DNA of 64,000 nucleotides from an uncultured bacterium (GCA_964591275.1 CAZQAE010000012.1:4860-68859); one strand, 5' to 3'; positions 11,510 through 41,863 are shown, counted from the stretch's first letter. The notes: generated by a model not told the origin, from the letters alone. Numbers and translations: made by a program.

Positions 11510-12367
11510 ATGTTCTTTTTGGACGTCGTAAAAAAATATCTTTGGATGATCAAGCTGGTTTTTGTCGCCGTTTTCGCCATTGAACTGGCCTTGCTGGTCA
11601 ACACGAGAATCGAGGCGAAAGTCGGCGCGGCGCCGATCATCGACTTGAGCGAGGTGACCCTGAGCGTGGCCGGCGGCTATATTTCGATCTCTGAATATGA
11701 GCAAATCCTGAAAAAGAACATTTTTAACTCGGCATACGTCTATAAGCCACGGGTTGCGAGCGGTATGAATCTGAAGGTGAACGAAGATTACGATCTTATC
11801 GGTACCGTGGCCTGGCGACAGCCATATTCCCTCGCGATAATCCAGGCAAAGCGAGCCAACAAGGTCGACGTCTATCGCGTTGGCGACCTAATTCAGGATG
11901 AGGCCGAAGTGACGCTCATTGAGCCTCGGCGCGTTACTTTATTGCGTGGCAGTAAGATCGAGATTCTGGAAATGCCCTATGAACGCATCGAGCTTGCCTC
12001 GCGGTCCAATCTTGAGGCTGGCGAAGGCGGCATCGCCAAGTCGGGCGACGACCATTTTGTCGTGGATAAAAGCGTCATCGATACGGCTTTTTCCAATTGG
12101 GGTCAGATGATGCGGGGAGCACGCATCATGCCTCATTTCGACAAGGGGAAAATCACCGGATTCAAGGTCTCCCGGATCAGGGCGGACAGCCTGTATAAGA
12201 AAATCGGTCTTGTAAATGGCGACATTCTTCACAGAATCAATGGACTGGAATTTAAAGGGCCCGAAGACGCCTTTAAAATGATGTCTGAACTCAAGGAATC
12301 AAAAAACGTTTCACTGGACATTTCCCGAAAAAGCGCCAGGAAAACATTGACCTATTCGATTCGATAA
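11510..12367 (+). CDS. gspC: type II secretion system protein GspC-like (N-terminal TM + C-terminal PDZ)
   Basis: N-terminal TM helix and a C-terminal PDZ-like segment (GFKVSRIRADSLYKKIGLVNGDILHRINGLEF); sits immediately upstream of the secretin. Confidence 0.55.
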   Translation: MFFLDVVKKYLWMIKLVFVAVFAIELALLVNTRIEAKVGAAPIIDLSEVTLSVAGGYISISEYEQILKKNIFNSAYVYKPRVASGMNLKVNEDYDLIGTVAWRQPYSLAIIQAKRANKVDVYRVGDLIQDEAEVTLIEPRRVTLLRGSKIEILEMPYERIELASRSNLEAGEGGIAKSGDDHFVVDKSVIDTAFSNWGQMMRGARIMPHFDKGKITGFKVSRIRADSLYKKIGLVNGDILHRINGLEFKGPEDAFKMMSELKESKNVSLDISRKSARKTLTYSIR

Positions 12368-12398
12368 GGGAAACACGATCCAAACGGGATATTTCGAT

Positions 12399-14933
12399 AT
12401 GAAAACAAGACAAAAAACAGGGAATCCTATGACGATAATGGCTTTCGGTTTAAAAAGGCGATCTTTCATTTTCGGATTGGTCCTTTTGATGATGCTCTCG
12501 ATGACGGTGTTTGCGGCGCAGGCCCAGGAAGAACCGACCAAGAGCGAAGATGAGGAAACCGCGACCGAAGAAGAAGGCGAACCGGACAAAACGGACAATT
12601 CCGACGAGGACGACGATACCGAAGAGGACGATGACACCGAGGAGGAAGAAGAAAAAACCGGAGAGGACAAAAAGGCCAAGCGTACTTTTCCGAGCCTCAA
12701 TGACAACGAACGCAACGTGTCCATCGATTTCACGGATACGGACATCAAGCAGATTGTGAAGATTATGTCGGAAATGACCGGCGAGAACTTCATGGTCGAT
12801 AAGGGCGTTTCCGGAACTGTCACGATCATCAGTCCCACGAAAGTCACGTCCCGGGAAGCCTATGACATTTTCATGTCCATATTGGCCGTTAACGGTTTTA
12901 CCACCGTCAAAGTTGGAAAGATCACAAAAATCATCCCGATCAAAGACGCGCAGTCATCGCCGGTCAAAACAAGAATGTCAGGATTGCCCAGGAGCAGCGA
13001 CGAATTCATCACTCAATTGGTGCCTTTGCAGCATATCGACGCCAATGACGCCATCACGGCCTTTAGAAGCTTCGTTTCGCCCAACGGCAACATGTTCGCC
13101 TACGGACCGTCGAACATGGTCATCATCCTCGATTCTTCCGTCAACGTGAAACGGCTCATGAGAATCCTGATGCAACTCGACGTGTCCGGCGGCAAGCAGG
13201 AGGTCGTGGTCATTCCCCTGGAGTACGCCTCGGCGGAGCAATTGGCTGACGTCATCCTGGAACTTTTCGAAGCGACTTCCTCGAAAACACCAGCGCGAAG
13301 GACCATTCAAAGCCGCCTGCGAGCACGTAGCAAACGTGGAGCCACCAGAAAAACCGCTCTCGGCAGCACATCCGTTCCGGCGAAAGACGACACCAAGATT
13401 CTGGCTGACACACGCACCAACAGCCTGATCGTCAAGGCCGGAAAAGTCGGTCTGACTCAGATAATGAATCTCATCAGAAAATTGGATCAACCTTTGCCCG
13501 GCGGCGAAGGGAAAATCCATGTTGTATTTTTAGAGAACGCGGAATCCGAAGAACTGGCGCAGACACTGGCTGATCTTGCCGGTAGCGGAGGAGGCACGGG
13601 CGCCGCCAGGGGTCTTAGCAAATCCCGCAGCAACACCAAAAACATGGCGCGCAACAGGACTCAGGGACTGCGTGGACAGCAGCAGCAGGGAAATCAGCGA
13701 CTGGGACAAACGACGGGGCGCTTTCTGGCCGACTTCGATGGCGCGGTTCGCATCACGGCGGAGCCTGCCACCAACTCCCTGGTCATCATCGCCAGCAACC
13801 GGGATTTCAAGATTTTAAAGGAAGTTATCGACAAGCTCGATATTCCGCGACGACAGGTCTTTGTTGAGGCGCTGATTATGGAAATCAGCATGGACCGCGG
13901 CTTGGACGTGGGATTCGAGTTCCGTTCGACCAATGATATGAGTGAAGACGGCGTCCAGGTTATCGGCGGCACCAATTACGGCGGCATTCAACAGGCCGCC
14001 GCCAATCCGATGGGCATCTCGGGATTCGCCATCGGCGCCGCCGACGGCACCATTACCTTTGCCGGTGAGACCTTTCCCAACATCGGCGCTCTGTTTCGCG
14101 CCATGGCCACAGATCAGGACGTGAACATTCTGTCCACGCCGCACATATTGACCCTGGACAACGAGGAAGCGGAAATCGTGGTCGCCGACAACGTTCCCTT
14201 CGTGACCGGGCAGATTTTTTCGACGAATAACACGAATCCGACCACGACCATCGAGCGCAAAGACGTGGGCATCACGCTGCGCCTGACGCCGCAGATTAAC
14301 GAAAGCGACTTCGTAAAGCTGATGATCTATCAGGAAGTCAGCCAGGTGACCGACAGTCCCGAGGGTCTTTCGGCGGCCTCGGTGGGCGTGACGACGGCCA
14401 AACGCACCGCCGACACGGTGGTGGTGGTCAAGGATCGACAGACGGTGATCATCGGTGGATTGCTCAAAGACTCCAGCCAGATTGTTGAATCGAAAATCCC
14501 GATCCTGGGCGACATACCTCTGCTGGGATACCTGTTCAAAAGCAGCAAGTCCAAGGTGAGCAAAACGAACCTTCTGATCTTCCTGACGCCGTACATCATC
14601 AAAGACTCGGCGGATATTGAGGAAGTGACGCGCATGACCAACAAGCGGATGGAAGATTTCCGCGAGCGACATCAAATTCCCCAAACCTTCGACCGTTTCA
14701 ACGATCTGGATCCCGACCGGATAACGCCCAAGGAAGGCGTGTTCAAGGCCCCGATGGGAGAGTCCATCGAGACCGATCCGAGGCTGCGCCGCCAGTTGGA
14801 GGGAACGGAAGAAGAGAGCTTTGATGAAAACCAAAGCTCAACGGAAGACGACGAGGAGGATCAGGGCGCACGGGATGAGACATCCACCGGTTCGGAACCG
14901 GACGATCTTCAACCTCTCGAAGAGGGTCAATAG
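12399..14933 (+). CDS. gspD: type II secretion system secretin GspD with acidic N- and C-terminal low-complexity extensions
   Basis: Secretin N domains and the C-terminal secretin core (NVNILSTPHILTLDNEEAEIVVADNVPFVTGQ, LLIFLTPYIIKD); acidic tract EEPTKSEDEETATEEEGEPDKTDNSDEDDDTEEDDDTEEEEEK after the signal peptide. Confidence 0.85.
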   Translation: MKTRQKTGNPMTIMAFGLKRRSFIFGLVLLMMLSMTVFAAQAQEEPTKSEDEETATEEEGEPDKTDNSDEDDDTEEDDDTEEEEEKTGEDKKAKRTFPSLNDNERNVSIDFTDTDIKQIVKIMSEMTGENFMVDKGVSGTVTIISPTKVTSREAYDIFMSILAVNGFTTVKVGKITKIIPIKDAQSSPVKTRMSGLPRSSDEFITQLVPLQHIDANDAITAFRSFVSPNGNMFAYGPSNMVIILDSSVNVKRLMRILMQLDVSGGKQEVVVIPLEYASAEQLADVILELFEATSSKTPARRTIQSRLRARSKRGATRKTALGSTSVPAKDDTKILADTRTNSLIVKAGKVGLTQIMNLIRKLDQPLPGGEGKIHVVFLENAESEELAQTLADLAGSGGGTGAARGLSKSRSNTKNMARNRTQGLRGQQQQGNQRLGQTTGRFLADFDGAVRITAEPATNSLVIIASNRDFKILKEVIDKLDIPRRQVFVEALIMEISMDRGLDVGFEFRSTNDMSEDGVQVIGGTNYGGIQQAAANPMGISGFAIGAADGTITFAGETFPNIGALFRAMATDQDVNILSTPHILTLDNEEAEIVVADNVPFVTGQIFSTNNTNPTTTIERKDVGITLRLTPQINESDFVKLMIYQEVSQVTDSPEGLSAASVGVTTAKRTADTVVVVKDRQTVIIGGLLKDSSQIVESKIPILGDIPLLGYLFKSSKSKVSKTNLLIFLTPYIIKDSADIEEVTRMTNKRMEDFRERHQIPQTFDRFNDLDPDRITPKEGVFKAPMGESIETDPRLRRQLEGTEEESFDENQSSTEDDEEDQGARDETSTGSEPDDLQPLEEGQ

Positions 14934-14976
14934 CGATCGGTTTCGACATCTCCCAACCAGGATTAGTGTAAGGATC

Positions 14977-16674
14977 ATGGCGAAGCGAATTGGTGAAATA
15001 CTTGTTGAAAACGGCGTAATTGACGCGGAGACGCTGGACAAGGCGCTGGAAGCGCAGGAGCAAAAGGGCGGACTTCTGGGCGAGACTCTCATTCGGATGA
15101 AGGCCGTTTCCGAATTGGATTGTCTAAAAGCCCTGGCCGGGCAGTTTCATCTTCCGCTGATAGAGCAAATCGATCCGGAAAAGGTCGATGGCAGTCTTCT
15201 GGCGCGGATTCCGATCAATTACGCGAAAAAGAACCTGGTTTTGCCTCTTCATGTCGAAGACGAAAAGATCCTTGTGGCCTGCACCAATCCCCTGGCCTAT
15301 ACGGTTCTCGACGACCTGAGAGTATTTTTGGGCGGGGAGATTCAGCCCATTCTGTCCACGGTGGGCATGATCTTCGACGCGATCAACATCGCATACGACA
15401 AGGCCAAGGAAACCACTGACGAGATGCTCGACCATCTGGAGGATGAGAGCGCCGCGCCCACCTTCGACCTGGACGAGATCACCGATATCATCGACGCTAC
15501 CGACGAAGATGCGCCCATCATCCGCCTCATCAATCACCTGATGTACAAGGCGGTCAAGGATCGCGCCTCCGATATTCACATCGAGGTTTTTGAAAACGAC
15601 GTCATCGTTCGCTTTCGCATCGACGGCGTGCTTTACGAAGTTATGAAGCCGCCGAAGCGCTTCCACAATTCTATTGCCACGCGCGTGAAAATCATGGCGA
15701 AATTGAATATCGCTGAAAAACGTATCCCGCAGGACGGGCGTATCCGCATCAAAATAGCCGGCAAGGACATCGACATTCGAACCAGCATCATCCCAACGGC
15801 TTGGGGAGAGCGCGTCGTTATGCGCCTGCTGGATAAATCGCAGGTGAGCCTTGACCTGGAAGGATTGGGGCTGGGCGGTGAAAAACTTCATAAGGTTGAA
15901 GCGCTTATTCAAAATCCTTACGGCATTCTCCTGGTGACCGGTCCGACCGGTTCCGGGAAAACCACGACTCTCTATGCCTCGCTGGTTCGTCTCAACAAGC
16001 CGGATGTCAACATTCTGACCGTCGAGGACCCGATAGAATATCAGATTTCCGGCATCGGCCAGATGCAGGTTAATCCGAAGATCAAACTCACTTTCGCCTC
16101 GGGCTTGCGTTCTTTTTTGCGGCAGGATCCCGACATCATTCTCGTCGGCGAAATCCGCGATCTGGAAACTGCGGAAATCGCGATCCAGGCGTCCTTAACC
16201 GGCCATCTGGTCTTCTCGACCCTCCACACAAATGACTCGGCCAGCGCTTTTACGCGTCTGGTCGATATGGGCATGGAGCCTTTCCTGGTGTCCAGTTCGC
16301 TGATCGGCGTTATTGCGCAAAGGCTGGTGCGTGTCCTGTGCCCGCAGTGCAAAGCGGTCTATTCGCCGACCGAAGAAGAGTTGGCAAAAATCGATCTTAA
16401 GCCGGAGGATGTCAAAACTCCCATTTACAAGTCCGTCGGCTGCTCAAACTGCATGGACACCGGATATTCGGATCGAACCGCTATCTACGAAATCCTCACG
16501 ATGGATGAGGACATCCAGCAACTGATTCTTTCCAACGCAGACGCCAACGCTATCAAACGAAAAGCTATCGACAACGGTATGACGACCTTGCGGATGGATG
16601 GAGCAGACAAGGTGCTGCGCGGCGAAACAAGCATCCAGGAAATTCTGCGTGTCACATCGGCGGATGTGCAATGA
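14977..16674 (+). CDS. gspE: type II secretion ATPase GspE
   Basis: Walker A LVTGPTGSGKTTTL, Asp/His boxes and the C-terminal CxxC...CxxC zinc motif (CPQCK...CSNCMDTG); start ATG at 14977 preceded by TAAGGA. Confidence 0.9.
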   Translation: MAKRIGEILVENGVIDAETLDKALEAQEQKGGLLGETLIRMKAVSELDCLKALAGQFHLPLIEQIDPEKVDGSLLARIPINYAKKNLVLPLHVEDEKILVACTNPLAYTVLDDLRVFLGGEIQPILSTVGMIFDAINIAYDKAKETTDEMLDHLEDESAAPTFDLDEITDIIDATDEDAPIIRLINHLMYKAVKDRASDIHIEVFENDVIVRFRIDGVLYEVMKPPKRFHNSIATRVKIMAKLNIAEKRIPQDGRIRIKIAGKDIDIRTSIIPTAWGERVVMRLLDKSQVSLDLEGLGLGGEKLHKVEALIQNPYGILLVTGPTGSGKTTTLYASLVRLNKPDVNILTVEDPIEYQISGIGQMQVNPKIKLTFASGLRSFLRQDPDIILVGEIRDLETAEIAIQASLTGHLVFSTLHTNDSASAFTRLVDMGMEPFLVSSSLIGVIAQRLVRVLCPQCKAVYSPTEEELAKIDLKPEDVKTPIYKSVGCSNCMDTGYSDRTAIYEILTMDEDIQQLILSNADANAIKRKAIDNGMTTLRMDGADKVLRGETSIQEILRVTSADVQ

Positions 16675-16715
16675 GCAGTGAACAATGAGCAATGAACAAT
16701 TAGCAATGAACAGTG
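16669..16715. repeat. 14 bp tandem repeat (CAATGAGCAATGAA x about 3.3) starting at the gspE stop codon
   Basis: caatgagcagtgaa caatgagcaatgaa caattagcaatgaa cagtg. Confidence 0.7.
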
Positions 16716-16797
16716 TAGGAGCGACATTCTTGTCGCGATCCCGGCGTAGGGGGCAGGTCCCCCGTGCCTGCCCGTGTAGGAGCGATATAACTCGCGG
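16713..16797. repeat. palindromic dispersed repeat family 1, copy B (two left-arm copies flanking a G5-N5-C5 hairpin)
   Basis: gtgtaggagcgacattcttgtcgcga ... gggggcaggtccccc ... gtgtaggagcgatataactcgcg; lies in the gspE-gspF intergenic region. Confidence 0.5.
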
Positions 16798-16813
16798 AAA
16801 ATAAGCGAAACCA

Positions 16814-18046
16814 ATGCCCGTTTATCAATACAAAGCCATGAACGCCCAGGGAAAATCGATCTCGGGCCTTATCGACGCGGACAATGAAAACACCGCCAAG
16901 GCGAAACTCCGTCAGGAAAAAAAATTCCCCACCTCCATCGAAGAGGTTGAGGAAGGCAAGGTCACGCGGGGCAAGGGCCTGTCCATGGAGATCGACCTGC
17001 GTGTCTTGCTGGGACGCATCAAAACGCAGGATCTGGCCATAGCTTTGCGCCAGTTCTCCACATTGATCGGCGCGAGTATTCCCATGGACAACGCCTTGAT
17101 GGCCCTTTCCAAGCAGGTCGAAAATCCACTTCTTATGAAGATATTCACGCAGGTGCGTGAGAAGGTGACTCAAGGGACTTCTCTGGCCAACGCCTTGAAG
17201 GATTTTCCGAAAACTTTCACGCCTCTTATGGTGAACATGATCAACGCCGGCGAGCAATCCGGCACCCTGGATCAGGTTTTGGGGCGCATTGCCGACTTCT
17301 CCGAGGACACGCTCGACCGTCAGCAAAGAATCAAATCCGCCATCATGTATCCGATTTTCATGCTCTTTATCGGCTCGGGCATTATGGCCTATCTCGTCGC
17401 CTTCGTGATCCCCAAAATATCCCAGATTTTTGAGGGAATGCACAAAACTCTGCCGCCGATGACCCTGCTGCTGCTGGGCACCGCCGACTTCATCAAAAAT
17501 TACTGGTGGTTTGCGATAATCCTCGGAATCGCGGGGTACTGGCTTTTTTCCCGCTGGCGCAAAACACCCAAAGGGCGCAAGAAATTCGACCGCTTCACTC
17601 TTTGGCTGCCGGTGTTCGGGCCGCTGATCCGGAAAATTGCCGTGAGCCGTTTCACACGCACTTTGGGAACCCTGCTGAGCAGCGGCGTGCCGATCATCGA
17701 GTCGATGAACATTGTCAAAAACGTCGTTTCCAATGTCATCATCGAAGAGGCGATTGACGGCGCCAAGGACAATATCCGCGAAGGGCAGTCAGTCTCCCGT
17801 CCCCTGGAGGCTTCCGGCGTATTTCCTCCCATGGTGATTCACATGATTATGGTGGGTGAACAGACCGGAGAGCTGGAGGATATGCTCTTTCGCGTGGCGG
17901 ACGCCTATGACCGGGAAGTCGCCTCGGCCATTACGGGTATGATGGCCCTGCTGGAGCCGGTGATGATTCTCGTCATGGCCGGCGCCGTCGGATTTGCCGT
18001 CATTTCGATTCTGATGCCGATCATGGACATGACGACGGGAATGTGA
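16814..18046 (+). CDS. gspF: type II secretion inner-membrane platform protein GspF
   Basis: MPVYQYKAMNAQGKSISG is the GspF/PilC N-terminus; two repeated T2SSF domains with 3 TM segments. Confidence 0.9.
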   Translation: MPVYQYKAMNAQGKSISGLIDADNENTAKAKLRQEKKFPTSIEEVEEGKVTRGKGLSMEIDLRVLLGRIKTQDLAIALRQFSTLIGASIPMDNALMALSKQVENPLLMKIFTQVREKVTQGTSLANALKDFPKTFTPLMVNMINAGEQSGTLDQVLGRIADFSEDTLDRQQRIKSAIMYPIFMLFIGSGIMAYLVAFVIPKISQIFEGMHKTLPPMTLLLLGTADFIKNYWWFAIILGIAGYWLFSRWRKTPKGRKKFDRFTLWLPVFGPLIRKIAVSRFTRTLGTLLSSGVPIIESMNIVKNVVSNVIIEEAIDGAKDNIREGQSVSRPLEASGVFPPMVIHMIMVGEQTGELEDMLFRVADAYDREVASAITGMMALLEPVMILVMAGAVGFAVISILMPIMDMTTGM

Positions 18047-18217
18047 TGTCCGATTTGAGTGAATGGATGCATCTGGATGTTGATCGCTTTGGTGAAAGCC
18101 GCTTTCGCGAAGGAACCGTTTAAGATGGCATCGGGATTGCAAAGTATATTCCGACAGACTCCTGGGGATATGAAAACCTGAGTCGAATATGGATTATTGC
18201 GCGTAAGGAGGTTCGCG

Positions 18218-18655
18218 ATGACGTTTTTGAAGCTGAGAAGGCCTTTACCCACCGGACGCCGTATGGTTTCGGGCGGTTTTACATTGCTGGAAATCATGGT
18301 GGTGGTCATCATCATCGGAACCATCGCCGGACTGGTCGGCGTCAAGGTTCTCGATAGATTGGAACAGGCCCGGATGGAGGCGTCCATGGCGCAAATGTCT
18401 TCGATAAAAAGCGCACTCGACCTTTTCAAAATGGACAACGGATTTTATCCGACGACCGACATCGGTCTGATGGCGCTCGTAGCGCCCAGACCCGACGCGA
18501 TGGGAGCGGGAGTTTCCGGTTATCTGAACAGCGATATGGTGCCTGTCGACCCCTGGAACCGACCCTATGGCTATGTTTCCGATGGTTATGCCTTTACAGT
18601 CTGGTCCAACGGACCCGACGGCGTGCCGCAATCGCAGGATGACATCACGGGCTGA
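18218..18655 (+). CDS. gspG: major pseudopilin GspG
   Basis: Prepilin motif G|FTLLEIMVVVIIIGTIAG; AAGGAGG RBS 8 nt upstream of the ATG at 18218. The alternative ATG at 18263 would give the canonical short leader MVSGG|F. Confidence 0.85.
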   Translation: MTFLKLRRPLPTGRRMVSGGFTLLEIMVVVIIIGTIAGLVGVKVLDRLEQARMEASMAQMSSIKSALDLFKMDNGFYPTTDIGLMALVAPRPDAMGAGVSGYLNSDMVPVDPWNRPYGYVSDGYAFTVWSNGPDGVPQSQDDITG

Positions 18656-18698
18656 GCTTCCGGTGGCATCATGCCAATCCAATGCGGAAGGTGGATGA

Positions 18699-19373
18699 TT
18701 GAAATCGCGATGGATACAGCATGTCGCCAGGGGATTACGCTGCGGTGATTTCAAGTCGCGGGCGCGCGCCGTGACGATTTGCATCAGCGCAAAATCCCTT
18801 CCCCGAAACGCCGCCAAAGGATTCACGTTACTGGAAATCCTCGCTGTGATGCTCATTATCGCCATTGTCATGTCCATCGCCATACCCCGATTCGGAGACG
18901 TTTTTCAGACCAATGTCAAAGGAGCGATGCGGAAATTCACTGGAATGGTGAAATTTTGTTTCCATGAGTCGGTCATTAAGCAGACTCATTTGAGGCTGAT
19001 GATTGATCCGGTCAAAGGAGAATACTGGCCGACCTTATTGGCGACATCCGGCAGCGTTGGCCAATTCGTGAGTTTAACCGGCAGCGATGTCATTTCAAAA
19101 AAAGGCAAGCTTCCTAACGGCATTCGCTTCATTGACGTGGTGACGCCTCATAACATCTTTAAAATCGACAAGGACGAGGCCTTTATCGCCTTTTATCCGA
19201 CCGGTTTCGTGGAAAGGTCAGTGATTCATCTCGGCGACGACGCCGGTCGATTTTACACCCTCGTCACGCAGCCTCTCACAGGGGATATGGAGGTTCTGGA
19301 CGGTTACGTGGACATTGCCGACACCAATCAATTCGAGGGACCGTTCTCGCTGTCGCAAAGCGGAAACCAATGA
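18699..19373 (+). CDS. gspH: minor pseudopilin GspH-like
   Basis: KG|FTLLEILAVMLIIAIVMSIAIP prepilin motif; the ORF begins with TTG; an internal GTG at 18761 would give a 17 aa leader; the true start is unresolved. Confidence 0.6.
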   Translation: MKSRWIQHVARGLRCGDFKSRARAVTICISAKSLPRNAAKGFTLLEILAVMLIIAIVMSIAIPRFGDVFQTNVKGAMRKFTGMVKFCFHESVIKQTHLRLMIDPVKGEYWPTLLATSGSVGQFVSLTGSDVISKKGKLPNGIRFIDVVTPHNIFKIDKDEAFIAFYPTGFVERSVIHLGDDAGRFYTLVTQPLTGDMEVLDGYVDIADTNQFEGPFSLSQSGNQ

Positions 19374-19939
19374 TGCAACGTGGACAAAATCCCGAGATCA
19401 AACAGGCAAGGAACCGGATTATTTTCGGCGCTTTCACTCCGCGCGAAGGCCGCAAGGGCTTTTCGCTTTTGGAAGTCATGGTCGCGATGGCTATTTTGGC
19501 GACGGTTCTGGTGGTGCTCCTTCAAAATCACGGAATGTCCATACGGGTGAGCCTTCGCGCCAGGCAGGCTTCCGTCGCCGCGAATCTTGCGCGGGACCTG
19601 ATGACGGAGATCGAACTGGAAGGTTTTCCCATGGTGGGCTCGGAAACGGGGAACTTCATGGACCGCTACCCAGGTCTGTATCCGGGATATACCTGGGAGC
19701 GCGAGGTGAACGAAAGCGTCTTCGCTGACTATATCCGCGAGGTAACGGTCCGCGTGAACTATCCCGTGGATCGCAGCACGGCAGGGATAGAACTTCTCAA
19801 CCTCATCGGCGCCAAGGACATCGAGGAACAGGAGATGGCCGGCCTTGGCGGCGGCGAGCTGTCCGGGAAAAGTCCCGGCGAACAGGCTCTCATGAGCAGC
19901 ATGGGGCGCATGAGCGAAGGCGGTGGAGATAAGAAATGA
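19370..19939 (+). CDS. gspI: minor pseudopilin GspI
   Basis: KG|FSLLEVMVAMAILATVLVVL followed by the typical GspI N-terminal segment; ATGA overlap with gspH; leader of about 29 aa. Confidence 0.7.
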   Translation: MMQRGQNPEIKQARNRIIFGAFTPREGRKGFSLLEVMVAMAILATVLVVLLQNHGMSIRVSLRARQASVAANLARDLMTEIELEGFPMVGSETGNFMDRYPGLYPGYTWEREVNESVFADYIREVTVRVNYPVDRSTAGIELLNLIGAKDIEEQEMAGLGGGELSGKSPGEQALMSSMGRMSEGGGDKK

Positions 19940-20754
19940 CAAAGCGATCCGGTTTCACTCTCCTGGAAGTGCTCGTGGCCACTGCGGTGACCGCCATGAT
20001 CCTGAGCATCGTCTATTCGAGCTTCGCGCGGACGGTGGAGAGCAAGGAATACGTGGAACTGGGCAATGAGGCCTATCACCGGGCCAGATGGGCTTTAGAC
20101 AAAATCGCCACGGATCTGGCTTCGGCCTACGTTCATCGTTCCAACAACAGCAATTCCATTTTTTATGCCGTGTCCCATGACATCAGCGGCATGCCGATGG
20201 ACGAAATGCACTTCACCAGTTTCGCGCATGTTAGCCACAATCCGCTGCTGGTTTCGTCGGACCAATGCGAGGTCGGATACAAAATCGCCTGGATTTCCGA
20301 ATTGGAACGTTTTCAGTTGTGGCGGCGCGAAGATCCCACAGTGGATGTTGACAACATGCAGGGCGGCGAGGAGTTCATGATTGTGGATGACCTGGCCGCC
20401 TTCAACGTGCGCTTTTGGGATGGCTTCAGTTGGCGGGACAATTGGGATTCCAGGCCCTTCGATATGGTTATGAGCGAAGACGGATCCGAGCAGCAGATGG
20501 AATTTGAGCAGACCGATGAAATGCTCAAGGCTTCGCCCGCAGCCGTGGAAGTCTCCATCGCAGTCAACGGACCCGATGGACGCCCAATCATTTTTACGTC
20601 CAAAGTGAAGATAGAGATGTCCACCATCAACCTCAAAGCGCTGGACGAAGAAGAGGATGAAGAAGGATCTTCCGGCAGCGGAAGCAGCAGCACGGATAAT
20701 GAAAAAAAGAATCCCTTCGCCAGCCCGACCGGGGGCTACGTCGGCGCGGGGTGA
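19936..20754 (+). CDS. gspJ: minor pseudopilin GspJ
   Basis: MTKRSG|FTLLEVLVATAV with a canonical 6 aa leader; ATGA overlap with gspI. Confidence 0.7.
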   Translation: MTKRSGFTLLEVLVATAVTAMILSIVYSSFARTVESKEYVELGNEAYHRARWALDKIATDLASAYVHRSNNSNSIFYAVSHDISGMPMDEMHFTSFAHVSHNPLLVSSDQCEVGYKIAWISELERFQLWRREDPTVDVDNMQGGEEFMIVDDLAAFNVRFWDGFSWRDNWDSRPFDMVMSEDGSEQQMEFEQTDEMLKASPAAVEVSIAVNGPDGRPIIFTSKVKIEMSTINLKALDEEEDEEGSSGSGSSSTDNEKKNPFASPTGGYVGAG

Positions 20755-20796
20755 CAGTGAACTGTCGTCAACGAAGATTGGTTTGGTTAACGGATA

Positions 20797-21891
20797 ATGT
20801 TTAAGGCCATCGGAAATTTTGCGACGGCCAATACTCCGCGGCGAGGAGTGGCCCTTCTAATCGTGCTGATGGTCACCACCATTCTCACGGTCGTCGTGCT
20901 GGATTTCGCGCAATCCACGCGTGTCAATTTCTACATCGCCTCCAACATTCATAACGGCATGAAAGCCTATTATATGGCGAAAAGCGGCATCCAGGTCGCC
21001 GAGGGTTCGCTGCTCAGGGATATGCAAAAGACCAAAGACGACCACTTGGACGAGGACTGGAACAATCCGCTTTTCAGCTTCATCCCCTTGTCGGATACCG
21101 AAACGATCTCCGTCAACATTACCGATGAGTCCGGCAAGTTCAACGTCAATCGCATGGTGAGCGGCACGGGAAATGTCAAGCAAACGGAAGTCGACATTTT
21201 CAGAAAACTGCTGGAACTGCTGGAACTCGACCCGGCGACAGCGGATGCCGTGGCCGATTGGTTGGATATCAACGAGGACGCCTTCAACGGCGCCGGCACG
21301 GAGGATCAGTTTTACGGCTATTCGGTTTCGCCGGGAGGAGCTTATCAGTCTAAAAACGGCCGATTGTCCAGCCTGGCGGAATTGAAACTCATCAAGGGGA
21401 TCAATAGCGACGTTTTCAAAAAACTCTCTGAAGTCTGCACGATATATACGGACGCCAAGCTGAACATCAATACGATCAATGACACGGTTTTAAGCGCCAT
21501 CATTTTGTCCATTGACGAAAAAGCCGACGCGCAAAAAACCATTTCGGCTATCACGGCCTATCGCGATACGCCCGAGCAGCACTTTGAAAAAAGGTCTTTG
21601 CGCGGACAGTTGATGGAGGCCGGCGTCGATCCGCGAATGGCCGCGCGCCTGCGTCGAAAGCTCGGCACATCCAGCAGATATTTTAGCGTTGATGTTACAG
21701 CCAACGTCGGGCCGACGGTGAAATCGGTTCGCGGCGTCGTGAAAAGAAGCAAGAAAAAGGTCAGCCTGGTTTACTTCAGACCCGGAGAACTTTTAAATCC
21801 GCCCAAGGCGCCCGATGACCTGGGGGCGATGGCCGATATGTTGGGCGCCGCGCAGGGCGCCGGCATCAACATTGGCGATTTCATGCAGTGA
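20797..21891 (+). CDS. gspK: minor pseudopilin GspK
   Basis: N-terminal TM segment (RGVALLIVLMVTTILTVVVLDFA) with a GspK-like body; position immediately after gspJ. Confidence 0.75.
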   Translation: MFKAIGNFATANTPRRGVALLIVLMVTTILTVVVLDFAQSTRVNFYIASNIHNGMKAYYMAKSGIQVAEGSLLRDMQKTKDDHLDEDWNNPLFSFIPLSDTETISVNITDESGKFNVNRMVSGTGNVKQTEVDIFRKLLELLELDPATADAVADWLDINEDAFNGAGTEDQFYGYSVSPGGAYQSKNGRLSSLAELKLIKGINSDVFKKLSEVCTIYTDAKLNINTINDTVLSAIILSIDEKADAQKTISAITAYRDTPEQHFEKRSLRGQLMEAGVDPRMAARLRRKLGTSSRYFSVDVTANVGPTVKSVRGVVKRSKKKVSLVYFRPGELLNPPKAPDDLGAMADMLGAAQGAGINIGDFMQ

Positions 21892-23783
21892 CGCACATAC
21901 CGCGAAAAACCATCGCCTACCTGATCGTCGCCGCTCTTGCGCCCGCATGGCTGGCTGTCTATTCGCTCATCCAGTTGGACGAAAAGCTCACCTGGCAGTG
22001 GATGATCGACGCGGCGGCATTTTGCGCGTTGTATATGACTGTTTTTGTCATGGCCCCGAAAAAGAAGTGGCTTCGTATTACTTTCGCGCTGATTGTGGCT
22101 GGCTGGTTCGTGTTTTTCCACGTGGGAAATGTCGCGTATTACAAGTTCTACGATACCTGGGCGCACATCCATATTTTCGACCAATGGAAAGATTCCTTCG
22201 CTCTGGGGAAATCGGTTTCTGAACTTCTTGGCCTGTGGGATTGGCTTTTCGGCGTTCTCGCCCCTCTTTTGATAGCCATCGCATCTTCGCTGATCAACGT
22301 CGATCCAAAAAGAAAAATACTGGCGCCCGTTTTCCTGATCAGTGCTTTCGCCCTGGTTATTGTTCATTACATAAGCGTCGGATCGCCTGTCGGCACGAAA
22401 CACCAGGAACCGATGATGTATTTTATCAGGGCGCCGATTGATGCGCGCGTTGACGCTTACAGGAAAAGGAAAGGAATCGAGCGCGTCGCCGCCAACCTGG
22501 ACCGCTACTACCCCATCGACCACGCAATTTATCAGCGAAGTCAAAATGCCAACCCGCCATTCGCCTCGGAGCCGGTTTCCGGCACGCAGGCTCCAAAAGA
22601 CTCCGTCAACATCGTCATCATCATGATGGAGTCGGTTGTCGCCTCGGCATCCGGGGCCTGGGGCGCAAGTCCTTCCTATACGCCGAATTTGGACGCATTG
22701 GCCGCGAACGGACTCATGGCGAAAAACTTTTACGCCAACGGGAGCCAGACCGTGCGCGGGGAACTGGCGAGTCTGTGTTCCTATTATCCGAACCTGTCCG
22801 GCGGACCAATTTATTCAAGGTATCATAAAACAGAGATGATCTGTCTGCCGGAAATCCTTGGCTCCTTTGGCTATCAGACCATGTGGATATCGTCTTATAA
22901 AAAAACCTATAACAAAAAAAGCCGCTTTCTTCGCCGACATGGCGTCGATGAAATTTACGACATCAAGGACATGCCGCCCGGCTATCAAAAAATCGGATGG
23001 GGCCCTGCCGATGAGAATCTGTTCGAGTCAGCGGCGACGCGCCTGGATGCGGCAACTGAGCCTTTTTTCGCCGAGATCATGACCCTCTCGAACCATCATC
23101 CTTTCCATTGGGATTATCCCAGCAACGCAACCGCGCCGCGCGGCGGGCATTCAGAGCCGTATGAAAACTTCATGCGCGGGATTTTTTATACGGACTACGC
23201 AATAGGCAAATTCTTTGAAAGCGTGCGTGATAGTGAGTGGTTTGCCCGAACCATTTTCGTGATCGTAGGCGACCACGGCATATGGCTCTTCCCGGAGGAT
23301 TCCGCAAAAGGTCCCGTCGAAAAACAGGAAGCCTATTTTCGCGTCCCGATGGTTATCTATGCGCCGGATTTGCTCGAAGCGCAGGTTTTTGAGCAGGTTG
23401 CATCGCAAGTGGATATTGCTCCGACGGTCATGGATATTATCGGTGCCAGGGCGCCAAACACATTTGTCGGGCAAAGCCTTCTTGCGCCTTCCGGCACCCC
23501 TCCTTTCGCCGTCATGCTGCATGACAGGCAATGGAACATCAGGCGCGGCAACGAGTATTGTTATGATGTCGGCGAGCAATGTTTTTACGAACACATTCCG
23601 CGCTGTCCGAAGGGATACAAAAAGGACCTGGGCCAGCCCGTTTCGTGTTTTCATTTTGAAGATGATTTATTGAGCCATTCCGAAAAGTGGCGGCAAAAGC
23701 CGCTAATAAAAAAGAATTTAGGGCTTATGTCTTTTGCCGAGGATTTGACAGCCTATCATCACAGGCTGTTGCTACGGAAGTAG
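21888..23783 (+). CDS. LTA-synthase/phosphoglycerol-transferase (sulfatase-superfamily) membrane protein
   Basis: Five N-terminal TM helices, then an alkaline-phosphatase-superfamily domain (IMMESVVAS...GSQTVRGE, SNHHPF, VGDHG). No CxPxR sulfatase motif, so LtaS/MdoB/EptA-like. The GTG start overlaps the gspK stop as GTGA. Confidence 0.7.
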   Translation: MTHIPRKTIAYLIVAALAPAWLAVYSLIQLDEKLTWQWMIDAAAFCALYMTVFVMAPKKKWLRITFALIVAGWFVFFHVGNVAYYKFYDTWAHIHIFDQWKDSFALGKSVSELLGLWDWLFGVLAPLLIAIASSLINVDPKRKILAPVFLISAFALVIVHYISVGSPVGTKHQEPMMYFIRAPIDARVDAYRKRKGIERVAANLDRYYPIDHAIYQRSQNANPPFASEPVSGTQAPKDSVNIVIIMMESVVASASGAWGASPSYTPNLDALAANGLMAKNFYANGSQTVRGELASLCSYYPNLSGGPIYSRYHKTEMICLPEILGSFGYQTMWISSYKKTYNKKSRFLRRHGVDEIYDIKDMPPGYQKIGWGPADENLFESAATRLDAATEPFFAEIMTLSNHHPFHWDYPSNATAPRGGHSEPYENFMRGIFYTDYAIGKFFESVRDSEWFARTIFVIVGDHGIWLFPEDSAKGPVEKQEAYFRVPMVIYAPDLLEAQVFEQVASQVDIAPTVMDIIGARAPNTFVGQSLLAPSGTPPFAVMLHDRQWNIRRGNEYCYDVGEQCFYEHIPRCPKGYKKDLGQPVSCFHFEDDLLSHSEKWRQKPLIKKNLGLMSFAEDLTAYHHRLLLRK

Positions 23784-23914: not shown

Positions 23915-23939
23915 TCACACCTCATACTTCATACTTCAT
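23915..23939 (-). repeat. 3'-end motif family 2, copy 2 (ATGAAGTATGAAGTATGAGGTGTGA on the minus strand)
   Basis: Overlaps the last three codons and the stop of the minus-strand lipoprotein gene; inverted relative to copy 1, which lies about 100 bp away. Confidence 0.6.
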
Positions 23940-25131
23940 CCGCCGTATCATCATCCACATCATCGTCCATGGTGTCGTCGTCTGCGGTATCGTCATCTCC
24001 GCCTTCGGGAAACTGCGTACCCGTTCGCCATGAGGAAACGCCATAGAGTGCGGCATCTTCAAGCTCAAAGTCACTGTCGTAGCAGGTTGGGTTCAGCGTC
24101 CAGCCGCCCGTGTCGCGAAGCATGAACGTGGATTGTTCCTTCTTTCCGTCGTAACCGACGGCCCAGCCGATGTTGGGATCGATGAAATCAAAGTCGTGGA
24201 TCATCCAATCGGCGCTTTTTTCTCCGGGGAGGGAAACGGGCGACCATAGAGCATTTTCATAGAGGTACATGACGGAATACGAGCAGTCGCCCAGGACGAA
24301 ATTCCGGTCCCCGATTTTTGTTGTTCGTTTAATATTTTCCGCCGGGCAGCCGGAGGCGGGGAATTCGAAAGGAGTAAAAGCGGATTCTTCATTTTGATAC
24401 CAAAGAAAACCGGTTCTATTCAAACCATCGATTTTCGAACCACCGACCATAATGCGACTGGAATAGCTCAGGCCCAGGGAAGAAAAATCGAGGAAATTGG
24501 CCGGATCGTAATCATAGAGATGCACCGGGCCGTCTTGGCCGCCTTGAATAAAATAGAGGAATGCGCGTTTTCCACTTTCCTGCAACAGGGCCATTACGCC
24601 GTTGTCGGCCAGCAGCATGATGTCCTTGATCACGATGTTGCCGTTGAACATGTCGTCCAGGTCCGTCAGATCCCACGCGCCGTCGGGCGTGCGACGCAAA
24701 AGAACGCCTCCCGATTCGGCGAGGACGTTCGCCATGGCCCAGGCGCCCTTGTCCGGGGTGGCGATGATGCGGCGGATTTCGTTGCCGGAGTGCATGATTC
24801 CCGGGTCTTCTTCGCTCCACTCGCCGTTTTCGTAAAGATAGGCCTTATCCGTTCCGGAGGCCCAGCCGAAATCGGCTGTCAGAAAATCCACGGCGAACCA
24901 GGGAAGTTCATCTTCGGGCGCCGTCTCGTCTTTGGCCCAAAGCCCCCCGGAATAACGGTAAACGGCTTCGCCGACGGCAATGGCTTCAATGTCCTTGATG
25001 CAGGTGACGGGAGTGGCATTGTCCTCAGCCTCTTTTTTTTCTTCGCCATCCTTTGCGGTGCAGGCGTTCAGCATCAGGCCGAAAATCAAAATCACGACAA
25101 TAGGCAATACGTTGAAATATGTATTTCTCAT
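23929..25131 (-). CDS. secreted lipoprotein with beta-propeller-like body and C-terminal poly-Asp tail
   Basis: Signal peptide + lipobox (LMLNAC); C-terminus GGDDDTADDDTMDDDVDDDTADEV. Confidence 0.5.
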   Translation of the reverse strand: MRNTYFNVLPIVVILIFGLMLNACTAKDGEEKKEAEDNATPVTCIKDIEAIAVGEAVYRYSGGLWAKDETAPEDELPWFAVDFLTADFGWASGTDKAYLYENGEWSEEDPGIMHSGNEIRRIIATPDKGAWAMANVLAESGGVLLRRTPDGAWDLTDLDDMFNGNIVIKDIMLLADNGVMALLQESGKRAFLYFIQGGQDGPVHLYDYDPANFLDFSSLGLSYSSRIMVGGSKIDGLNRTGFLWYQNEESAFTPFEFPASGCPAENIKRTTKIGDRNFVLGDCSYSVMYLYENALWSPVSLPGEKSADWMIHDFDFIDPNIGWAVGYDGKKEQSTFMLRDTGGWTLNPTCYDSDFELEDAALYGVSSWRTGTQFPEGGDDDTADDDTMDDDVDDDTADEV

Positions 25132-28637: not shown

Positions 28638-29909
28638 CTATAAGTGTTTTTTCGCTTTTGCGCCGATGTCCGTGCGGCAATGCGCTCCTTTAAAGCCGAT
28701 TTTGCCCACGGCGGCGTACGCGTTGGCAATGGCCTCAGGGATCCCTGCGCCCAGGGCCGTTACGCCCAGAACGCGCCCCCCGCTTGTGACTACGTTGTCG
28801 CCGTCGAGTTTCGTGCCCGCATGAAAAACTTCCGCGTTTGGACCGAAATCCGAATCGAGACCCGTGATGACTTTGCCTTTCTCGTAAGCGCCGGGATAAC
28901 CGCCCGATGCCATTACCACGCACACCGAAGGCTCTTGCAGCCATTCGACGCTGTGCTCGTGCAAAGTCCCATCGGCGCACGCCATGAGCAGCGGTACGAT
29001 ATCCGACTTCATGCGAAAAAGAAGCGGCTGCGTTTCGGGGTCGCCGAAGCGCGCGTTGAACTCAAGAACTTTGACCGCGCCGTTTTCGATCATGAGACCG
29101 GCGTAGAGAACGCCCTGGTAGGGGGCGCCCTGATCGGCCATCCCCGCCACGATCGGCTTCATGATGCCGGTCATGATGTCGTCGAAAAGGGCCGGCGTGA
29201 CGACAGGCGCGGGTGAGTATGCGCCCATGCCGCCCGTATTGAGCCCTTTGTCGCCGTCGAACACGCGTTTGTGATCCTGGCACGTCGCCAGGGGCATGAC
29301 GGTTTTGCCGTCGCTAAAAGCCAGGAAGCTGGCTTCCTCGCCATGTAGAAATTCTTCCACGAGGACACTATCGCCCGCGTCGCCGAAATCGCGATCCAGC
29401 ATGATGCTTTTTAGGCCCGCTTTCGCCTCGTCGAGATTTTCACAAATGAGAACGCCTTTGCCCGCGGCCAGTCCATCGGCTTTCAGAACGACCGGAAAGC
29501 CGAAACGGTTCAGTGAGGCCAAAGCTTTTTCGTATTCCGTGAAACTTTCGGATTGGCCGGTGGGGACTCCGTATTTTTGGCAAATCTGCTTCGTGAACGA
29601 CTTGCTGCCTTCAAGCTGCGCAGCCGCTTTTTTTGGTCCGAAAGCCTTAAGGCCTCGCTCAAAAAGCAGATCGGCCAACCCGTTCACCAAGGGTCCCTCG
29701 GGACCGATGACGGTCAGATCAATCGAATTATCCCGGGCAAAATCGGCCAGCGCCATGATGTCGCCCGCGCCTATGTCGATGTTTTCAGCGACCTGGGCCG
29801 TTCCCGCGTTGCCCGGCGCGCAGAATATCTTTTCGACCAGCGGGGATCGGGCGATTTTCCAACACAGCGTATGTTCACGACCGCCGGAACCGACGACGAG
29901 TATTTTCAT
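28638..29909 (-). CDS. purD: phosphoribosylamine--glycine ligase PurD
   Basis: MKILVVGSGGREHTLCWKIARSP and an ATP-grasp body; start at the internal ATG. Confidence 0.9.
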   Translation of the reverse strand: MKILVVGSGGREHTLCWKIARSPLVEKIFCAPGNAGTAQVAENIDIGAGDIMALADFARDNSIDLTVIGPEGPLVNGLADLLFERGLKAFGPKKAAAQLEGSKSFTKQICQKYGVPTGQSESFTEYEKALASLNRFGFPVVLKADGLAAGKGVLICENLDEAKAGLKSIMLDRDFGDAGDSVLVEEFLHGEEASFLAFSDGKTVMPLATCQDHKRVFDGDKGLNTGGMGAYSPAPVVTPALFDDIMTGIMKPIVAGMADQGAPYQGVLYAGLMIENGAVKVLEFNARFGDPETQPLLFRMKSDIVPLLMACADGTLHEHSVEWLQEPSVCVVMASGGYPGAYEKGKVITGLDSDFGPNAEVFHAGTKLDGDNVVTSGGRVLGVTALGAGIPEAIANAYAAVGKIGFKGAHCRTDIGAKAKKHL

Positions 29910-29944
29910 TTTGGACCTCGGAAAAGATGTGCGTTGCGTATCAT

Positions 29945-32543: not shown

Positions 32544-32574
32544 TCATACCTCATACTTCAAACTTCATAACTCA
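32544..32574 (-). repeat. 3'-end motif family 2, copy 3 (ATGAAGTTTGAAGTATGAGGTATGA on the minus strand)
   Basis: Starts 5 nt after the TGA stop of the minus-strand FGE-fold gene, sense to that gene. Confidence 0.6.
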
Positions 32575-41329: not shown

Positions 41330-41863
41330 TTGGAGGCTTCTATGAAATCGCGCATGGTCAGTTTACTTCTGGCGGCATTGTTGTCGATTTTCACTGTTTG
41401 CGTCGTTGCATCCTGCAACAGCAGCGGCGACGACGATGATGATGACGGCGTCAGTTACGGAGAGGACATTCACGGCACTTATACCGCGCAGATGACATAC
41501 GATGTGGATACCTGCTCGGTCGGCAACGAAGACAATGATCCCGTGGAATGGATTATCGAAATTGAGCAAAGCGACGATCTGTCGGTGGCCTGGGTCAGAT
41601 ACCAGGAAGTTGGCTCCGGCGATATGCAGGAATTGTTCAAAGGCACTGTATATGGAAACGTCGTCATCAAGGCCGGCATCGACACGCGAGGCGTTGGCGC
41701 CGACTGCGCGAAGATCAACGTTGAGGATTTGCAGATCCGCGTTGATGTTGAGAATAAATCCGTTTACGGGAATATCTCCAAAGACATCTTCTATCAGGGC
41801 GCCGGCTGCGACTCGTCAACAATCGATTGTTTCTACGAGCAGAGTTTTTCGACGGGTGAGTGA
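41330..41863 (+). CDS. small secreted lipoprotein with poly-Asp tract after the lipobox
   Basis: MKSRMVSLLLAALLSIFTVCVVASCNSSGDDDDDDG...; 177 aa. Confidence 0.5.
   Translation: MEASMKSRMVSLLLAALLSIFTVCVVASCNSSGDDDDDDGVSYGEDIHGTYTAQMTYDVDTCSVGNEDNDPVEWIIEIEQSDDLSVAWVRYQEVGSGDMQELFKGTVYGNVVIKAGIDTRGVGADCAKINVEDLQIRVDVENKSVYGNISKDIFYQGAGCDSSTIDCFYEQSFSTGE

Follow-up and report, generated by a model that had tools for sequence, protein, structure and literature searches.

The gene cluster described here is probably a ‘delta/myxo’-type type II secretion system (T2SS) from a lineage with dispersed gsp genes, in one subclade of which a resident LtaS-family gene has become the last cistron, a reading to which we give a probability of roughly 60%. 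According to this model, the T2SS genes of the source lineage would not be held in one complete operon, and a housekeeping LtaS-family gene already present in the genome would have been recruited, in a single subclade, as a terminal and translationally coupled operon cistron. The arrangement is unusual; the evidence does not make the locus a new kind of machine. A functional link, for example modification of pseudopilins or cargo by the LtaS-family enzyme, is possible.

The type II secretion cluster

The window, that is, the whole 64-kb stretch of DNA that was analysed, comes from an uncultured lineage labelled Deltaproteobacteria by NCBI. Its plus strand, to which all coordinates below refer, encodes gspC-D-E-F-G-H-I-J-K in this order (11510–21891), and all ten open reading frames (ORFs; nine gsp genes and the LtaS-family gene) were confirmed. 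Genes were assigned with Pfam and NCBIfam profiles, and the NCBIfam equivalog cut-offs are exceeded by GspC, GspD, GspE, GspF, GspG and GspK. GspC (11510–12367, 285 amino acids) is of the ‘delta’ type (NF041515 GspC_delta, 184 bits, cut-off 150; Pfam T2SSC and PDZ_2), with an N-terminal transmembrane (TM) helix at residues 12–30 and a C-terminal PDZ domain. It is followed by the secretin GspD (12399–14933, 844 amino acids; TIGR02517, 553 bits, cut-off 351; Pfam Secretin, three copies of Secretin_N and GspD N0) and the ATPase GspE (14977–16674; TIGR02533, 714 bits, cut-off 630). The true start of gspE is the ATG at 14977, giving 565 amino acids, and not the ORF opening at 14821, as similarity to the L002 homologue starts at ORF residue 53 and TAAGGA precedes this ATG. 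GspE opens with a putative c-di-GMP-binding motif of the MshEN type (14977–15144; RIGEILVENGVIDAETLDKALEAQ, then a second, degenerate copy), which matches NF053729 (58.6 bits, cut-off 38) as well as Pfam MshEN. The inner-membrane platform protein GspF (16814–18046, 410 amino acids; TIGR02120, 455 bits, cut-off 424; two Pfam T2SSF domains) and the major pseudopilin GspG (18197–18655, GFTLLE prepilin motif; TIGR01710, 113 bits, cut-off 89; Pfam T2SSG) come next.

The gspH, gspI and gspJ models are matched below cut-off by the three pseudopilins that follow, which have the N_methyl motif and stand in canonical order. The GspH-like protein (18699–19373, GFTLLE motif, true start probably 3' of the ORF opening) was placed by its position in the cluster (N_methyl, 29 bits; TIGR01708, 35.6 bits, below cut-off). 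The gspI-like gene (19370–19939, GFSLLE motif) overlaps gspH by ATGA, and its product matches TIGR01707 (34.7 bits, cut-off 44), XpsI (34.5 bits) and N_methyl. A second ATGA overlap joins it to gspJ (19936–20754, GFTLLE motif; Pfam T2SSJ, 28.5 bits, cut-off 28; N_methyl). The last minor pseudopilin, GspK (20797–21891, 364 amino acids), is recognized by NF037980 (195 bits, cut-off 130) and Pfam T2SSK_1st. Judged by these profile matches, gspCDEFGHIJK is a bona fide type II secretion cluster, which is probably functional, and the canonical gene order of a genuine T2SS that the sequence-only reading had recognized is borne out.

The gspK/LtaS-family junction

The gspK stop codon TGA (21889–21891) overlaps a GTG at 21888, and this GTGA junction (21888–21891) begins the gene for a predicted LtaS-family membrane phosphotransferase (21888–23783) of 631 amino acids, with five TM helices and an alkaline phosphatase (AP)-superfamily domain. 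The sequence and the ORF calls thus agree with what had been claimed earlier for this junction. The frame opens past an in-frame TGA (21816–21818), and no start codon precedes the GTG in it. Initiation at either of the two codons that come next, TTG (L29) and ATG (M39), would delete the first TM helix, a region that is conserved in the LtaS-like family and in which Y25 and D41 are invariant; because of this cost, the GTG is the only usable start. There is no evident Shine-Dalgarno sequence at the GTG or TTG start of the LtaS-family genes, which, together with the stop/start overlap, argues for co-transcription with the T2SS genes and for translation most likely by termination-reinitiation from gspK. 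Such reinitiation would keep the enzyme at a low level and make it dependent on T2SS expression. The earlier proposal that the overlap implies co-translation with the pseudopilins survives in a narrower form: coupling to gspK is most likely, and the claim does not extend to the pseudopilins generally.

The LtaS-family enzyme

Five hydrophobic helices (residues 9–27, 38–56, 62–82, 120–138 and 144–162) are seen in the hydropathy profile and in an AF2 model (pLDDT 85.5), and are followed by the AP-superfamily domain (Pfam Sulfatase PF00884, 154 bits), which is predicted from this topology to face the periplasm; a precomputed match to LtaS_N is weak. The best PDB sequence matches are VP1736 (3lxq, 5e-36), LtaP (4uop), LtaS (2w8d) and GacH (5u9z, 7e-05), and the top Foldseek matches are 3lxq (E 4e-24, TMt 0.76), LtaP and LtaS (entries 3lxq, 4uop, 4uor and 2w5r). 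Residues E248, T288, H403, D462 and H463, which supply the Thr nucleophile, the Glu/Asp/His metal ligands and the substrate-binding His, are invariant across 23 homologues, with T288 aligning with the Thr of the LtaP SNT motif and GDHG with GDHH. The nucleophile position reads GSQT288VRGE, with Thr in place of the sulfatase CxPxR; no C/S-x-P-x-R occurs there, and the sole loose [CS]x[PA]xR match is a distant SAATR at residue 381. A formylglycine-dependent sulfatase was rejected on account of the Thr288 nucleophile and the missing CxPxR. These two features and the fold matches confirm the LtaS/MdoB-like, non-sulfatase identity suggested by the sequence-only reading. Similarity of the EptA/PptA type was not found, there being no named phosphoethanolamine transferase among 51 PDB sequence matches and no match to such a family in Pfam or NCBIfam. 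The equivalog models of characterised enzymes score far below their cut-offs for orthology (LtaS NF053595, 115 versus 970 bits; OpgB PRK12363, 80 versus 572 bits), and the Pfam family DUF3413 is not matched.

We envisage five TM helices bearing an AP-fold domain that lies in the periplasm, depends on metal and uses a Thr nucleophile. The enzyme most likely moves the head group of a phospholipid (probably sn-glycerol-1-phosphate, taken from phosphatidylglycerol) to an envelope acceptor, leaving diacylglycerol behind. The acceptor would be a glycan, a lipid or a protein. The one hint of glycerophosphate chemistry is the fusion of a GlpQ-type glycerophosphodiesterase domain (PF03009) to three homologues (P0011, P0016 and P0024). 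The gene is of native composition (GC3 0.62, compared with 0.62–0.72 for the gsp genes), and the activity of the enzyme would pre-date its linkage to the T2SS and have no need of it.

Conservation of the arrangement in relatives

The 4-bp overlap between gspK and the LtaS-like gene is found in four loci, namely the window, L030, L002 and L029 (GspK 69–100% identical), which form one clade in a neighbour-joining tree of GspK; its letters are GTGA in L002 and L030 and TTGA in L029. In a fifth locus, L036 (GspK 61%), the two genes are neighbours as well, with a spacer of 129 bp between them. An LtaS-like gene after gspK is therefore shared by four loci besides the window, whereas the link is absent in five relatives. 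Where GspK is 42–58% identical, the pseudopilin operon also stops at gspK and the T2SS genes are scattered: L024, L025, L027/L028 and L037 hold only gspG-K or gspF-K, the first three of these have convergent, unrelated genes 3' of gspK, and L037 has no LtaS match after gspK. The sequence of L026 ends 261 bp beyond gspK. LtaS orthologues (37–51% identical) occur elsewhere in unrelated housekeeping contexts, including L031–L035, and orthologues unlinked to T2SS genes are present in related as well as unrelated lineages. In the metagenome-assembled genome JAOSJX01 the orthologue and gspK share a contig, some 50 kb apart, and of 22 genome loci that contain LtaS homologues, just one (L002) has gsp genes adjoining the LtaS gene.

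Judged by gene order, the gspK-LtaS linkage is restricted to one clade. The overlap outlasts GspK divergence to 69% identity, and the fifth locus keeps the two genes as neighbours without the overlap. This persistence exceeds what a purely accidental juxtaposition would need; to that extent it speaks against the favoured reading and would fit a functional link under selection.

A dedicated role in secretion

One form of such a link would be a dedicated T2SS accessory, that is, a periplasmic phospho-form (glycerophosphate) transferase acting on pseudopilins, cargo or surface-anchored proteins, comparable with Neisseria PptA/PptB. The overlap with the last pseudopilin gene, kept in four loci and joined by the fifth adjacency, would fit this role, as would a catalytic domain predicted to lie on the periplasmic side, the home of pseudopilins and cargo. 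Precedents are the phosphoglycerol modification of pilin by PptB (PMC8445170; PMC10948894) and the finding that T2SS-dependent surface proteins gain glycerophosphoethanolamine before transit (preprint 10.1101/2023.06.07.544157). However, the LtaS orthologues noted above are linked to neither T2SS nor type IV pilus genes, sister lineages have orthologous gspG-K operons without the gene at that position, nothing in GspG sets the linked clade apart, and no paper in the literature library searched joins LtaS, type II secretion and pseudopilin. We therefore consider a dedicated accessory unlikely, and give a slightly slimmer chance to its fuller version, in which a T2SS-dedicated transferase, reinitiated from gspK, would add glycerol-phosphate or another head group to pseudopilins, cargo or surface-displayed proteins.

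GspL, GspM and the prepilin peptidase

Among the 51 long ORFs scanned in the 64-kb window, no Pfam or NCBIfam match to GspL, GspM, GspN, GspO/PilD or PilM/N/O was found, so the absence of gspL, gspM and a prepilin peptidase reported earlier for the cluster holds across the whole window. GspG, GspH, GspI and GspJ have G-F-(T/S)-L-L-E prepilin-peptidase motifs, and since the window encodes no peptidase, this enzyme must certainly be encoded elsewhere in the genome. For platform partners of the GspL/M (or PilM/N/O) type, we assume that their genes, too, probably lie elsewhere. Among the genes called up to 10 kb away from gspK in L024, L025 and L027/L028, there was likewise no L/M-family Pfam match and no PilM/N/O candidate. 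As the operons of relatives end at gspK with neither L/M nor LtaS, the missing L/M genes are, on the evidence of gene order, a lineage-wide feature of gene linkage that is unrelated to the LtaS gene and not peculiar to the present locus. The sequence-only reading, which had suggested that the locus could be a non-canonical T2SS, was thus right that L/M are not linked and that the LtaS-like neighbour is real. The idea that this neighbour marks a special machine is weakened, in that L/M are also missing after gspK in LtaS-less relatives, relatives have their gsp genes dispersed and a peptidase gene has to exist outside the cluster, and LtaS orthologues are found unlinked to T2SS genes.

The same absences could mean that the T2SS of this lineage is truly minimal and lacks L/M, with GspE docked otherwise (e.g. 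on GspF/GspC, with MshEN sensing c-di-GMP) and the LtaS-like gene irrelevant. Consistent with this, the MshEN motif of GspE sits in the N-terminal region that canonically binds GspL (PMC10128026). Against it, the absence is seen in linked DNA only, in a lineage whose relatives have scattered gsp genes and with a peptidase that lies elsewhere; Pfam often misses divergent L/M, and specially built HMMs were needed for the L/M/N of Synergistetes; and GspL and GspM are integral parts of the assembly platform in characterised T2SSs (PMC10128026). We hold a truly L/M-less system to be improbable.

The remaining proposal, that the 5-TM LtaS-like protein takes over the structural role of GspL/M in partnering GspE and GspC at the inner membrane, is strongly disfavoured: the protein is predicted to reside in the inner membrane and its gene fills the slot after gspK, the normal place of gspL (canonical order gspC to gspO, PMC10128026), but it has neither a cytoplasmic actin-like nor a ferredoxin-like periplasmic domain, its entire length follows the LtaS/PbgA type of architecture and its catalytic site is intact, the gene is missing from relatives with orthologous T2SS genes, and orthologues occur in genomes without adjacent T2SS genes.

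Implications

Taken as a dispersed T2SS with a late-joining LtaS-family cistron, the locus has annotation value and leaves concepts unchanged, the present evidence pointing mainly to a well-behaved T2SS cluster that, in one clade, carries an additional last cistron. A functional linkage would bring to type II secretion the phospho-form modification of pilins known from the type IV pili of Neisseria, and would offer a way to the acceptors of the numerous LtaS-like enzymes in diderms. A dedicated transferase, if true, would be the first post-translational modification enzyme built into a T2SS, possibly one that also runs without GspL/M. Should the lineage truly be without GspL/M, it would offer a natural minimal T2SS, useful for the question of how GspE is docked.

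Comparison with known systems

The cluster shares with the canonical Gsp/Pul/Eps operons of Proteobacteria (gspC-O) the order C-D-E-F-G-H-I-J-K, and with it the secretin, the ATPase, the platform protein GspF, the major and four minor pseudopilins and the prepilin motifs. In contrast to these operons, it ends at gspK without linked gspL, gspM, gspN or gspO, has a ‘delta’-type GspC (NF041515) and a GspE that opens with an MshEN motif, and carries an LtaS-family gene in the position next to gspK.

For the enzyme, the best sequence and fold matches are LtaS, LtaP and the uncharacterised VP1736 of Vibrio parahaemolyticus (PDB 3lxq), with which it shares five N-terminal TM helices, an extracytoplasmic AP-superfamily domain, the Thr nucleophile and Glu/Asp/His metal ligands. 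It differs from them in identity (just 16–22% in fold alignments), in its LtaS equivalog score (115 bits versus 970), in an additional Cys-containing C-terminal region (residues ~555–631) and in its host, a diderm without known lipoteichoic acid. OpgB/MdoB (phosphoglycerol transferase I, acting on periplasmic glucan) and GacH are members of the same superfamily, with a presumed transfer of glycerol-phosphate from phosphatidylglycerol to a glycan of the diderm or streptococcal envelope, and are matched weakly (PRK12363, 80 bits; GacH 5u9z, 7e-05); unlike OpgB, the present protein lies far under the 572-bit equivalog cut-off, and the window showed no opgGH genes.

PptA and PptB of Neisseria are membrane-anchored AP-superfamily proteins. 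They decorate the type IV pilin PilE with phosphoethanolamine, phosphocholine or phosphoglycerol (PMC10948894, PMC8445170). The likeness is one of functional analogy: as pilin is a pseudopilin homologue, a pseudopilin-directed role would be conceivable, whereas the LtaS orthologues of relatives are not linked to pilin genes. Finally, PbgA/YejM (LapC) combines five TM helices with a periplasmic AP-fold domain and gives a full-length Foldseek match (6xlp/6v8q, E ~1e-16), although with low TM-scores (0.41–0.46), 12–14% identity and no DUF3413 match; in contrast to PbgA, the present protein retains the Thr nucleophile and the metal ligands typical of active transferases.

The secretion gene cluster

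Ten successive ORFs on the forward strand span window positions 11510-23783, and nine of the ten are T2SS genes by Pfam and NCBIfam matches. GspC (NF041515 'GspC_delta', 184 bits against a cut-off of 150), GspD (TIGR02517, 553 against 351), GspE (TIGR02533, 714 against 630), GspF (TIGR02120, 455 against 424), GspG (TIGR01710, 113 against 89) and GspK (NF037980, 195 against 130) all score above threshold, and three prepilin-type proteins with sub-threshold matches occupy the canonical positions of GspH, GspI and GspJ. The prepilin-peptidase motif G-F-(T/S)-L-L-E is found in each of GspG, H, I and J, and ATGA overlaps occur at the gspH/gspI and gspI/gspJ junctions. A promoter and terminator scan gave a signal no better than that of shuffled sequence. 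The gene identities assigned in the sequence-only reading, and the overlap at the end of gspK, stand; the start of gspE has to be moved to ATG 14977, past the gspD stop, because homology to the closest relative starts there and TAAGGA lies just upstream. The N-terminus of GspE (14977-15144, +) contains a tandem MshEN-type c-di-GMP-binding motif, RIGEILVENGVIDAETLDKALEAQ followed by LLGETLIRMKAVSELDCLKALAGQ (NF053729, 58.6 bits, cut-off 38), which suggests that this ATPase may be under c-di-GMP control. In canonical systems, the same N-terminal region is the one that binds GspL (PMC10128026).

The LtaS-family protein and its junction with gspK

The tenth gene (21888-23783, +) encodes a 631-aa protein with five hydrophobic helices within residues 9-162 and a C-terminal Pfam Sulfatase domain (154 bits), together with a weak LtaS_N match in the precomputed annotation. 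AlphaFold2 models it with confidence (mean pLDDT 85.5, pTM 0.81). The nearest solved structures by sequence are Vibrio parahaemolyticus VP1736 (3lxq, 5e-36), Listeria LtaP (4uop) and Bacillus subtilis LtaS (2w8d), with GacH as a weaker match and no phosphoethanolamine transferase among the PDB sequence matches. The Foldseek ranking agrees, with 3lxq first (E 4e-24, TMt 0.76), followed by LtaP and LtaS; PbgA/YejM is matched over the full length, although loosely. Residues E248, T288, H403, D462 and H463 do not vary across the family alignment, with T288 aligned to the Thr of the LtaP SNT motif and the GDHG metal ligands to GDHH. The five-helix anchor carries an LtaS-type catalytic centre that is intact. 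By architecture and catalytic residues the protein belongs to the LtaS-type membrane alkaline-phosphatase superfamily, and its earlier description as LtaS/MdoB-like rather than a formylglycine sulfatase is correct; the nucleophile position has no CxPxR motif. The equivalog scores are far below their cut-offs for both LtaS (115 bits against 970) and OpgB (80 against 572); neither LtaS, OpgB, EptA and PbgA nor any other characterised enzyme is an orthologue of the protein. Three homologues (P0011, P0016 and P0024) carry a fused GlpQ glycerophosphodiesterase domain (PF03009), which would be consistent with glycerophosphate chemistry. The enzyme probably moves the head group of a phospholipid onto an envelope acceptor in the periplasm; the likeliest group is glycerol-phosphate, with phosphatidylglycerol as the inferred donor.

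The gspK stop codon TGA (21889-21891) overlaps GTG 21888 of the LtaS-family gene, as had been proposed. An in-frame TGA (21816-21818) precedes the opening of the reading frame, in which GTG 21888 is the earliest start codon; initiation at either alternative further downstream, L29 (TTG) or M39 (ATG), would remove the first transmembrane helix, a conserved element of the family (Y25 and D41 do not vary among 23 homologues). No Shine-Dalgarno element is evident in the upstream sequence GGCGATTTCATGCA-GTG, so that initiation at GTG or TTG probably relies on ribosomes terminating at gspK. Translation of the enzyme is therefore probably coupled to gspK termination; its output would then follow that of the T2SS and be as low as is usual for a minor-pseudopilin gene in terminal position.

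Distribution and history of the linkage

Relatives were compared through the contexts of GspK homologues; identities are to the window's GspK (100%). A metagenome scan with the GspK alignment gave only five loci. The LtaS-family gene follows gspK with a GTGA overlap in the window and in loci L030 (85%) and L002 (80%), with a TTGA overlap in L029 (69%), and after a 129-bp spacer in L036 (61%). The four overlap-bearing loci group together as a single clade when GspK is placed in a neighbour-joining tree. The arrangement noted in the window recurs in these relatives but not in the remainder: gspK is followed by an unrelated convergent gene in L025 (58%) and L024 (56%), neither with LtaS or gspL/M; there is no downstream LtaS match in L037 (57%); and L027/L028/L039 and L038 (42-43%) have no LtaS and no gspL/M, with an unrelated convergent gene in L027/L028. 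In L026 (56%) the contig ends 261 bp past gspK, and none of that stretch is LtaS-like.

Scanning a genome collection with the family alignment yielded 22 loci with LtaS homologues, and gsp genes adjoin LtaS only in L002, the close relative; ~8 kb from a very distant match (L023, 25% over ~100 residues) there is a weak match to a GspE-family ATPase. Orthologues at 37-51% identity, from MAGs labelled Deltaproteobacteria and Electrothrix plus one metagenome contig, are flanked by tRNA synthetase genes or have acyltransferase, amino-acid or fatty-acid genes as neighbours. In MAG JAOSJX01, gspK (15426-16616 of the record) and an LtaS orthologue (~66.7-68.5 kb) share a contig ~50 kb apart; this orthologue (L011 10001-11850) is frameshifted and split over several reading frames, owing to either pseudogenization or assembly errors. 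Horizontal insertion of the LtaS-family gene was considered and rejected, since its GC and GC3 match those of neighbouring genes. In the simplest history, a resident envelope-enzyme gene would have been placed beside gspK in one subclade, with the junction later narrowed to a 4-bp overlap.

We favour, at a probability of roughly 60%, a housekeeping enzyme recruited into the operon, with L and M encoded elsewhere. It is considerably less probable that the protein is a dedicated T2SS modification enzyme. By analogy, such an enzyme could act on a pseudopilin or on T2SS cargo: in Neisseria, PptB adds phosphoglycerol to pilin (PMC8445170; PMC10948894), and glycerophosphoethanolamine is put on T2SS-dependent GlyGly-CTERM proteins ahead of transit (10.1101/2023.06.07.544157). 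However, the unlinked orthologues argue for a T2SS-independent function, no result favours a pseudopilin or cargo acceptor over a glycan or lipid, and a search of GspG for a candidate modification site or other feature specific to the linked clade found none.

GspL, GspM and the prepilin peptidase

The T2SS part list in the window is complete but for L, M and O. No GspL, GspM, GspN, GspO/PilD or PilM/N/O was matched among 51 long ORFs scanned across the 64-kb window (Pfam, with NCBIfam for ORFs without a match), confirming that gspL, gspM and gspO are missing at the cluster. The prepilin motifs in GspG-J require a peptidase; one or more essential components must therefore be encoded outside the cluster. 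The relatives without LtaS have an operon of gspG-K or gspF-K only, which places gspC, D and E elsewhere, and the 10 kb around gspK yielded no L/M-family Pfam match in L024, L025 or L027/L028. Since these relatives also have no L/M beside gspK and their gsp genes are split, both the absence and the dispersal are traits of the whole lineage, not specific to the LtaS gene. A T2SS that truly operates without L and M would account for the same absence, and we regard it as unlikely in a lineage that disperses its gsp genes. We attach very little weight to the LtaS-family protein as a structural stand-in for L/M, which are also absent beside gspK where it does not occur.

The ORF directly past the LtaS-family gene (23929-25131, -, 400 aa) is approximately the size of GspL, but is not GspL; it is a predicted lipoprotein with an acidic tail, kept in L002 at the same site (67% identity), convergent to the LtaS gene. 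Two further predicted lipoproteins (41330-41863, + and 41999-42436, +) likewise have extended poly-Asp/Glu stretches as linkers or tails; one example of such a stretch is a C-terminal DDDTADDDTMDDDVDDDTADEV. None of the three has a family match.

Other features of the window

Genes with FGE-sulfatase (SUMF1-like) domains lie a few kb from the pseudopilin operon in the window (32572-33450, - and 33678-34886, +) and in two relatives (L024 3009-3476; L027 12334-13728), although the neighbouring 'sulfatase' does not depend on formylglycine; where genomes are rich in the domain, such recurrence may be coincidental. LtaS-type enzymes use phosphatidylglycerol, which lends interest to genes of phosphatidylglycerol or glycerol-phosphate metabolism near gspG-K operons: PgpA fragments just upstream of gspG (L024 6708-7066), a CDP-alcohol phosphatidyltransferase (L027 15131-15757) and gpsA (window 34939-35949). 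The window also encodes a gingipain-like peptidase C25 (31079-32482, +), a TIGR04551-family protein (43504-45144, +; 131 bits, under the cut-off of 300) and an Mrr restriction endonuclease (45285-46280, -). An HTH and peptidase M78 (ImmA/IrrE-like) gene (57910-59584, +), overlapped by a 174-aa ORF, may form a mobile-element or toxin-antitoxin-like module; GC at 58-60 kb is 0.476, the lowest in the window's second half. PurD (28638-29948, -) has one 97%-identical JGI copy, with the next-best homologues at 60-67% identity and those with names mainly from 'Deltaproteobacteria bacterium' MAGs, which suggests as the source an uncultured lineage that has been poorly sampled.

Comparison with known systems

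In the literature searched we found no paper that places an LtaS-family gene within a T2SS operon or connects LtaS with T2SS pseudopilins, nor one linking PptB with LtaS. Judged by its family matches, six of them to equivalogs, the cluster is a T2SS of known kind, in which the defining L/M feature was not found in the DNA examined. The gspK-LtaS arrangement is modestly interesting: it gives no pointer to a new mechanism at present, and is a clade-restricted operon variant built of known parts.
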